From an uncultured Pseudomonadota bacterium (GTDB lineage Bacteria; Pseudomonadota; Alphaproteobacteria; UBA9219), in assembly GCA_903920205.1 (NCBI GenBank), contig CAIXLI010000063.1:7913-71912 (forward strand): DNA of 64,000 nucleotides. The letters run 5' to 3'. The notes beneath the pieces were generated by a model. The model saw only the letters and a list, made by a program, of their open reading frames with translations. It had not been told where the DNA came from and did not search any database. The position numbers and the translations under genes are program-made. Shown piece by piece: positions 25,230 through 26,267 of this stretch (position 1 is the stretch's first letter; each line of letters begins with the position of its first letter).

Positions 25230-26267
25230 CTAGGTTATCCGCCCATTTTGAAGCAGTCTTGCCATTTGCTGATCGGCGAGCGTTCTTGTTTGACCAATGC
25301 GGCGGTCGCGGATCAAGGCGCGAACGGGAGAGCCAGGGTTGTCGGCCTCCGTCACCATAAATTGCGCATACAGGCCCGAGGGCAAGAACGCCTGATAAAG
25401 CACGCAGGTCAATCCTGCCGCCAGAAGCAGAGGCGCGCGTGCGCCTGTGTCATCCTGTTCTGCCAATTGCAGTAAGCCTTCCAACGCTTCTTCCATGCTG
25501 CCCGCATGCATCGTCGCCAAAACGGTATGTCCGGAAGTTGCTGCACGAAGGACTTGGCTGGCGGCGTCGGGCGTGCGGATTTCGCCGACGGTGATATAAC
25601 GCGGATGCCAACGCAGTGCGCGTTTCAGCATCAAGCTCCAGTCCTCTTCCTGCCGGATTTCGGTTTGATAGCAATAGCCGTTCTCGCCGCAGCGGCCTTC
25701 CGAGTCGTATTCGACGGGATCTTCAAGCGTAAAGCCTATGCCGCCATAGGTTTCCAGATAGCGAGATAAAAGCGAGGAAATGGTGGTGGTTTTGCCCTGA
25801 CCCGACGCACCGCAGACAAGGATCAATCCGCTGCGTCGTCCCAGACCTTCCAAAAGAGGCGTCAATTGGGGAATGAAGCCGAGCCGTTCGAGCGGCGGCG
25901 GACGATGGGGCAGGCGGCGCAAAGCCGCCCATGTTTCGCCTCGGGACGTTTCCAGCCGCGTCGCGCGCATGCGCATGCCATTATAATCAATCGCAGCTTC
26001 GTCGTTCGAAAAATTCTCGCGCAGATAACAGGTCAGGGCGTTGGCATCGTCGAAATATGCCTCCGGCAAATCGGCATCCGGCAAGGCTATCGCGCCGCCG
26101 AAACCCGCGCGGTAATGCGCGACGGCATCCGTGTCCAACCGCAGGTAAATATCCGTAAAGTTTAGGTCGTTAAGGGGATGCTGGGAGGACATTTTGGAGG
26201 GCATGGCTTTTCTCGCACAATCATTATAACCGATCTCGTTGTATACGATGTCGGCGCGGATTGCCAC
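25230..26267 (-). CDS. dotB: PilT/VirB11/DotB-family secretion ATPase, DotB-like
   Basis: Walker A GLILVCGASGQGKTTT, the PilT-type EDPVEY box, and GEIRTPDAASQVLRAATSGHTVLATMH, which is the His-box region. 345 aa from a GTG at 26267; an alternative ATG lies at 26204. Stand-alone gene with no pilus genes nearby. Confidence 0.6.
   Translation of the reverse strand: MAIRADIVYNEIGYNDCARKAMPSKMSSQHPLNDLNFTDIYLRLDTDAVAHYRAGFGGAIALPDADLPEAYFDDANALTCYLRENFSNDEAAIDYNGMRMRATRLETSRGETWAALRRLPHRPPPLERLGFIPQLTPLLEGLGRRSGLILVCGASGQGKTTTISSLLSRYLETYGGIGFTLEDPVEYDSEGRCGENGYCYQTEIRQEEDWSLMLKRALRWHPRYITVGEIRTPDAASQVLRAATSGHTVLATMHAGSMEEALEGLLQLAEQDDTGARAPLLLAAGLTCVLYQAFLPSGLYAQFMVTEADNPGSPVRALIRDRRIGQTRTLADQQMARLLQNGRIT

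Follow-up and report, generated by a model that had tools for sequence, protein, structure and literature searches.

Work on Dot/Icm-type type IVB secretion systems (T4BSS) has been almost confined to Legionellales, in which an orthologous DotB belongs to the core. DotB shares its superfamily and fold with TraJ of IncI plasmids, with the PilT and PilU motors of type IVa pili, and with BfpF, the retraction ATPase of the bundle-forming pilus of enteropathogenic Escherichia coli (EPEC). Piliated bacteria generally carry several PilT paralogues at scattered places. We compare with these proteins the ATPase encoded at 25230-26267 in a 64,000-nucleotide stretch of DNA from an uncultured alphaproteobacterium of the UBA9219 lineage (assembly GCA_903920205.1, contig CAIXLI010000063.1, positions 7,913 to 71,912; the whole stretch is called the window in what follows). 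A preliminary description had recognized a stand-alone traffic ATPase of the PilT/DotB superfamily in a genome with a dispersed T4BSS, which is right, and had identified it as DotB, against which model scores, pairwise scores, the phylogenetic tree, and the operon contexts of plasmid relatives all speak. As judged from its sequence, the ATPase belongs to the BfpF branch, that of type IVb pili, and lies outside the DotB/TraJ branch. To annotate members of this family as "twitching motility protein PilT" or as "DotB" is misleading in either case.

The protein matches the Pfam family T2SSE (PF00437) with 98.5 bits for a cut-off of 24.9, which places it in the secretion superfamily. The best-scoring curated model is that of the PilT family (TIGR01420), with 101 bits for a cut-off of 319, and it is followed by TraJ (TIGR02525; 75 bits, cut-off 368) and DotB (TIGR02524; 58 bits, cut-off 463). 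None of 44 orthologues reaches the curated cut-off for DotB, TraJ, or PilT, the best E-values among them being 7e-20, 1.3e-26, and 5.3e-36, respectively. For BfpF-type small ATPases, the libraries searched offer no curated model. The Xanthomonas plasmid pXCV183, whose T4BSS is far from that of Legionella, provides a control: its DotB/TraJ-like ATPase scores 340 bits with the DotB model, 215 bits with the TraJ model, and 307 bits when compared with the DotB chain of Legionella. In pairwise phmmer comparisons, the window protein scores 126-135 bits with BfpF and a BfpF-like protein, as full-length homology (residues 11-278), 85 bits with the PilT of Aquifex, and 39-61 bits with DotB and TraJ. 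A reciprocal search starting from BfpF ranks the alphaproteobacterial family above PilT, and DotB is itself nearer to PilT (121-135 bits) than to the window protein (60 bits).

A neighbor-joining tree of the ATPases (Kimura distances, 307 trimmed columns, 200 bootstraps, rooted on PilB-like assembly ATPases) recovers a DotB/TraJ clade (85.5%) and the union of this clade with PilT (87%), and leaves the window family outside both. The family groups with BfpF and with the small ATPase of the pXCV183 pilus, the node joining it to BfpF having only 42% support. The alignment points the same way. The window family has EDPVEY where DotB has YESPIEF (the general form in DotB/TraJ being (T/H)YE(S/D)P(I/V)EF), and it lacks both the insertion in the N-terminal domain of DotB and the first N-terminal helix present in PilT and DotB. 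Like that of BfpF, its N-terminus begins at a strand of the form L-x-[DE]-L-x-F-x-D-L-Y. The N-terminal 125 residues, earlier regarded as unusual, are the conserved N-terminal domain of the BfpF type and are not peculiar to the window gene.

Full-length relatives found on plasmids by tblastn are the small second ATPases of type IVb pilus operons. In pXCV183 this small ATPase gene sits between the pilin gene and pilV, and the DotB/TraJ-like ATPase is a separate gene adjoining DotD, TraI, and IcmT. The relative on E. coli plasmids occupies the position of bfpF, 3′ of bfpD and bfpE, and is 64% identical to annotated BfpF. A stand-alone homolog is also found on plasmid pANAM02 of Bosea sp. ANAM02 (L092, 682066-683022), matching the first 70% of the query at 43% identity; its surroundings are phage-like (RusA, DnaQ, a helicase), and neither pilus nor secretion genes occur within 12 kb. 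Some distant members of the wider family (e.g., P0193, P0206, P0213, P0227, P0244) have 720-1020 residues, two matched stretches, and a C-terminal ATPase module, and are fusions or duplications.

The features of the window gene, called A hereafter, are the following.

25230..26204, minus strand: coding sequence of the ATPase (paralogue A, BfpF-type PilT-like family), 324 residues from the very probable start ATG at 26204, stop codon counted in the coordinates
26205..26267, minus strand: in-frame extension of 21 codons up to a GTG, with TATAAT at 26223-26228; homologs start near the ATG
26133..26174, minus strand: N-terminal signature strand LNDLNFTDIYLRLD, with the family motif L-x-[DE]-L-x-F-x-D-L-Y and no preceding first helix of the PilT/DotB type
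25788..25811, minus strand: Walker A, GASGQGKT, residues 132-139; G132, G135, G137, and K138 are invariant in 44 homologs
25707..25724, minus strand: Asp box, EDPVEY, residues 161-166, from the alignment
25575..25595, minus strand: Walker B, ITVGEIR, residues 204-210, with the catalytic E208, from the alignment
25497..25535, minus strand: His box, SGHTVLATMHAGS, residues 224-236, from the alignment
25290..25328, minus strand: PVRALIRDRRIGQ, residues 293-305, corresponding to the AIRNLIRE motif of PilT and not in DotB/TraJ
26299..26319, minus strand: terminator-like hairpin followed by a T-run after the BI-1 gene, separating the ATPase gene from BI-1 upstream

The open reading frame of 345 residues counted from the GTG, on the minus strand, is real. 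The true start is nevertheless very probably, indeed almost certainly, the ATG at 26204 instead of the GTG previously chosen, to judge from three features of the sequence: an identical database protein (P0001; 324 residues, 100% identity) begins there, conservation in the alignment of the 44 homologs sets in about 10 residues past it, and a perfect TATAAT hexamer lies 19 nt 5′ of it, within the GTG extension. The extension is probably a 5′ leader with the promoter and not coding. The neighbors are as first reported, BI-1 (26352-27062) and ihfB (24777-25091), all three genes being on the minus strand. The gene had also been called monocistronic. The hairpin does part it from BI-1, but no terminator was detected between it and ihfB; hence strict monocistrony is not shown and the transcript may run on into ihfB.

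The Walker A, Asp, Walker B, and His boxes are all intact in the alignment, which bears out the motifs first noted, and all four are invariant in the 44 homologs. Conservation extends over the full length (mean column identity of 60%) and includes every catalytic residue. The PVRALIRD of the window protein aligns with the AIRNLIRE of Aquifex PilT, and R295 and R299 are invariant. An AlphaFold (AF2) model built from the 44 homologs (mean pLDDT, the model's per-residue confidence, of 92.9) has an N-terminal domain and a RecA-like C-terminal domain, as in PilT and DotB; a comparison with DotB thus finds the two-domain fold shared, but the first helix of DotB missing from the aligned N-terminus. 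Foldseek against the PDB returns PilT4, PilU, PilT, and DotB at E ~1e-20 and TM scores of ~0.7. Because PilT and DotB are both matched at this level, the fold alone cannot separate them. From sequence and model together, the gene product is predicted to be a soluble, catalytically competent hexameric PilT-like ATPase.

The window protein has at least 120 database clusters among the matches listed, with 54-81% identity and all from uncultured Alphaproteobacteria. In a scan of GTDB species genomes, the best 80 loci come from metagenome-assembled genomes (MAGs) labeled Alphaproteobacteria, Rhodospirillaceae, Micavibrio, Rickettsiales, or "Bdellovibrionales"; as NCBI places Micavibrio under Bdellovibrionales, these labels point to a Micavibrio-like lineage. 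The family is restricted to Micavibrio-like (Micavibrionales-type) alphaproteobacteria, a lineage placed here by the submitters' labels. Each genome carries two to four paralogues of the ATPase. The orthologues of the window gene (A; 49-81% identity to the window protein) stand alone, a further copy (A3; ~52%) is present in some genomes, and two others (B2 and B; 43-48%) form a tandem pair, resembling pilT-pilU in type IVa systems.

A and the tandem pair differ in their surroundings. In close relatives of the window the order is BI-1-A-ihfB, and in more distant ones it is sucD-A-sucA or fliP-A-sucA. Part of a pilus operon is found within 10 kb at three of ~80 A-type loci and DotA, within this same distance, at three, and the neighbors at the rest are housekeeping genes only; hence, no operon partner of A can be deduced from its position. 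A was relocated into housekeeping surroundings. In most genomes the tandem pair has moved to a place after hisS and pyrC (hisS-pyrC-B2-B). At locus L050 (14-11017) it forms the end of a complete pilus operon, in the order pilN-pilO-pilQ-pilR-x-x-pilin-B2-B, and at L064, L075, L077, and L081 it lies 0.5-5 kb from a block TcpQ-PilN-PilO-PilP-PilQ (12421-19293 in L064). The components of this block are TcpQ (PF10671), the secretin PilN (TIGR02520, 259 bits), PilO (PF06864), PilP, and PilQ, an assembly ATPase of 640 residues. From L050, L064, and L100, the chromosomal pilus operon of the lineage comprises TcpQ, PilN, PilO, PilP, PilQ, PilR, and a pilin-like gene; the copy in L100 (1-8649) has no small ATPase of its own. 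These gene blocks indicate that the lineage owns a type IVb pilus like those of R64 and pXCV183, with B2 and B as its operon-linked small ATPases. A itself is not encoded in such an operon; only B2 and B, in L050, take the place that follows the platform and pilin genes. For about 20 of 45 GTDB genomes bearing B2 or B, the 80 best hits include no A, and in one of these genomes (L085) DotM is beside B.

The other machine of interest is the T4BSS, whose genes in the window are the following.

6994..8295, plus strand: DotM/IcmP homolog, of the T4BSS coupling complex (PF23127, 158 bits), stand-alone directly after parAB
57564-58787, plus strand: DotH/IcmK (PF12293, 241 bits)
58735-60315, plus strand: DotG/IcmE (NF033900, 178 bits)
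60373-61494, plus strand: DotF-like gene, a weak match

The DotH/G/F-like genes at 57.5-61.5 kb, already noted in the preliminary description, are thus real. DotM had been missed (the copy of a relative scores 187 bits on NF033890), and its solitary position after parA and parB makes the T4BSS even more scattered than supposed. It is followed at 8323-8778 (plus strand) by an open reading frame of 151 residues without family match. Among the scanned open reading frames of the window (the plausible ones of at least 150 residues, all but a few), there are no pil, tad, or gsp genes, as had been stated before, and apart from DotM and the DotH/DotG/DotF-like group the annotated ones are housekeeping genes.

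The order at 54699-61494 (dnaA, MAPEG on the minus strand, DotH, DotG, DotF-like) is kept in a 585-kb JGI contig (L096). Other relatives have a long cluster, DotI-DotJ-DotH-DotG-DotF-IcmC/TraQ-IcmD-DotN-DotO-DotM, next to aconitase and DUF1036. The order of this cluster is that of region II of Legionella. DotH homologs of the lineage are as numerous and divergent as the ATPase, and both are carried by a scaffold of 1.02 Mb (1,022,635 bp), with the ATPase near 888 kb and DotH, in the DotI-to-DotM cluster, near 485 kb. DotA is found alone or just beyond a pilus operon in relatives, and a 478-kb contig has DotA, a pilus operon, flagellar export genes, A, and sucA in this order within ~30 kb. Such juxtapositions suggest that a single island, dispersed since, gave rise to the genes of the T4BSS, the pilus, and the ATPase; which machine is served by A cannot be read from them. 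The lineage shows a scattered Dot/Icm-like system in bacterial predators, vertically inherited, alongside an IncI-like type IVb pilus and an expanded set of BfpF-like motors.

The T4BSS of the lineage is not itself new, as pT4SSi systems were detected in seven marine Micavibrionales, a result given only in passing (Needham et al. 2022, PMC9418006). In 2011, the genome paper on Micavibrio aeruginosavorus ARL-13 had stated that nothing pointed to a type IV secretion system (PMC3189940). In contrast, Micavibrio-labeled MAGs have the ATPase family and "Bdellovibrionales"-labeled MAGs have DotH and DotA homologs, ARL-13 itself being outside the comparison. No literature was found on the ATPase family, on its paralogy, or on its relation to the type IVb pilus operon.

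Which machine does A drive? The reading we favor, to which we give about an even chance, is that A is a retraction-type or auxiliary motor paralogue for the type IVb pilus of the lineage. It is favored because the sole characterized relative of the family and its sole operon contexts are those of type IVb pili, because A, B, and B2 share one form of the AIRNLIRE-like motif, suggesting that their partners are alike in kind, and because multiple PilT paralogues are commonly scattered in piliated bacteria. The hexamer would dock on the cytoplasmic face of the inner-membrane platform, and its ATP-driven conformational cycling would remove or remodel filament subunits, A being analogous to the additional PilT/PilU copies in type IVa systems. 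An IncI-like element would probably be the source of both the pilus and the Dot/Icm-like T4BSS, which may cooperate at the contact between predator and prey. Several observations weigh against this reading. The tree that groups the family with BfpF is distance-based, and support for that grouping is low. No direct link from A to the pilus was found, the operon-linked copies being B2 and B, which already give the pilus a pair of small ATPases. The T4BSS, for its part, is left without a known DotB in the clusters and DNA examined. None of the T4BSS clusters examined (L010, L095-L100, and the window) contains a T2SSE ATPase, and a tblastn search with four DotB/TraJ references over ~2.4 Mb of lineage DNA returned no DotB-clade gene, only the BfpF-like family at ≤93 bits; as this sample is centered on the ATPase loci, it is weak evidence that a canonical DotB is absent. 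Finally, in MAG GCA_027485855.1 (L043/L098, JAIXQD010000021.1), DotA is followed on its own strand, after 313 bp, by an A orthologue (51% identity), with a sub-cluster of DotN, IcmD, IcmD, IcmC, and TraX divergent from DotA. No other direct adjacency of the family to Dot/Icm genes was seen; in L039 and L120, DotA is 3.6 kb from A.

Most of these observations also feed the alternative that A is a functional analog of DotB by nonorthologous replacement, canonical DotB/TraJ having been lost and A, drawn from the small ATPase of a type IVb pilus, docking on DotO/DotL to energize the T4BSS. This we regard as possible but doubtful. In its favor are the conserved and dispersed Dot/Icm genes in the same genomes (DotM, DotH, DotG, and DotF in the window; the DotI-to-DotM cluster on the 1.02-Mb scaffold with A), the A orthologue directly after DotA and near TraX, IcmC, IcmD, and DotN, the T4BSS clusters without an internal T2SSE gene and the sampled DNA without a DotB-clade match, and a pilus to which B2 and B are already dedicated. 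Yet A has no DotB orthology by hidden Markov model, pairwise score, or tree, it keeps the PilT-type AIRNLIRE-like motif in the form shared with B and B2, a hint that all three have partners of one type, and its adjacency to T4BSS genes is rare, occurring in one sublineage only among the ~80 A loci. Besides, the ~20 genomes with B2 or B and no A among the best hits include the one with DotM beside B, and the absence of a canonical DotB rests on the ~2.4 Mb of sampled lineage DNA. The broader proposal built on this, that Micavibrionales-type predators have a T4BSS without DotB/TraJ, powered by an A recruited from the co-inherited type IVb pilus and probably aimed at bacterial prey rather than at eukaryotic hosts, is correspondingly tentative. 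That A is instead a true but diverged DotB orthologue is essentially excluded: the shared superfamily and fold (DotB structures at TM 0.67-0.72) and the T4BSS in the window are set against 58 bits for a cut-off of 463, with the 44 orthologues doing no better than E 7e-20, against the 340 bits of the pXCV183 DotB-like protein, from a T4BSS that is itself distant, against a DotB closer to PilT than to A, against the exclusion in the tree at 85-87%, and against the lack of the YESPIEF box, of the N-terminal-domain insertion, and of the first helix. The preliminary description had held that clustering with type IV pilus retraction ATPases, pilus genes elsewhere in the genome, and a lack of other Dot/Icm components would together speak against DotB; the family does group with type IVb (BfpF) retraction ATPases and relatives do have pilus operons, but other Dot/Icm components are clearly present. 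It is rather improbable, though less remote, that A works outside both machines, as a regulatory or sensory ATPase, as the motor of a Tad pilus, type IVa pilus, or type II secretion (T2SS)-like system encoded elsewhere in the genome, or as a redundant copy under relaxed function. Its solitary place amid housekeeping genes (sucD/sucA, fliP, ihfB), the presence of up to four paralogues per genome, and the further dispersed pil and flp genes reported for M. aeruginosavorus (PMC3189940) are compatible with this; no positive evidence singles out another partner, however, the operon contexts of the family are those of type IVb pili only, and the strong purifying conservation over the full length, with invariant catalytic residues, argues against decay.

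Should A serve the pilus, as we favor, it would be one more PilT paralogue of an ordinary kind. Should it serve the T4BSS, this would be a nonorthologous replacement of a core T4BSS ATPase, type IVB core ATPases would be interchangeable with pilus motors, and the Walker B mutant E208Q would offer a handle to switch off secretion in studies of Micavibrio predation. A role in defense was also considered and dropped, as PADLOC gave a negligible P-loop match only.

Three other genes of the window deserve mention. The ribosome silencing factor RsfS (23751-24305, plus strand) has a Lys/Ala-rich N-terminal tail of ~70 residues (KKPAAKAKKPVKAAVKK...), which Pfam matches in the near-identical copy of L002 as histone-H1-like HC2. 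The open reading frame of ribosomal protein L25/Ctc (50543-51514, minus strand) has 323 residues with the L25 domain only from residue 92, and hence either an N-terminal extension or a mis-set start. Upstream of xerD, at 20301-22118 (plus strand), a protein of 605 residues has a signal-peptide-like N-terminus and no Pfam or NCBIfam match, and is kept at the same place in L001 and L002.

Compared with known systems, A shares superfamily and fold with DotB (Legionella, Yersinia) and TraJ (IncI, pXCV183), co-occurs with Dot/Icm genes, and has one orthologue beside DotA. It differs from them by its scores (58 and 75 bits against 463 and 368), its separate clade, EDPVEY in place of YESPIEF, the lack of the N-terminal-domain insertion and first helix, and the presence of an IRD/E motif missing from DotB; in the window and the ~80 loci it never adjoins DotC/DotD-type genes. 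With PilT and PilU (TIGR01420) it has in common the two-domain fold (TM 0.70-0.73), the catalytic boxes, and the C-terminal AIRNLIRE-like motif, and these proteins, like the A family, are typically encoded apart from other pilus genes, in several paralogues and with a tandem pair in the genome. However, A reaches 101 bits where the PilT cut-off is 319, has no first N-terminal helix, and lies outside the PilT plus DotB clade (87%), and the pilus genes of its lineage (PilN, TcpQ, PilO) are type IVb and not type IVa. The small ATPases of the BfpF and pXCV183 type differ from A in that A is only ~30-35% identical to them, is chromosomal, stand-alone, and one of two to four lineage-specific paralogues, keeps the AIRNLIRE-like motif much better than BfpF does, and has a Walker A of the form GxxGQGKTT and not GATGSGKST. 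They nonetheless resemble it most closely, with ~320 residues, the same catalytic boxes, homology over the full length, and an N-terminal domain that starts at the same L-x-x-L-x-F-x-D-L strand. BfpF gives the best pairwise scores to A of any characterized protein (126-135 bits), and its operon position, after the platform and pilin genes, is that of the sister paralogues B2 and B.

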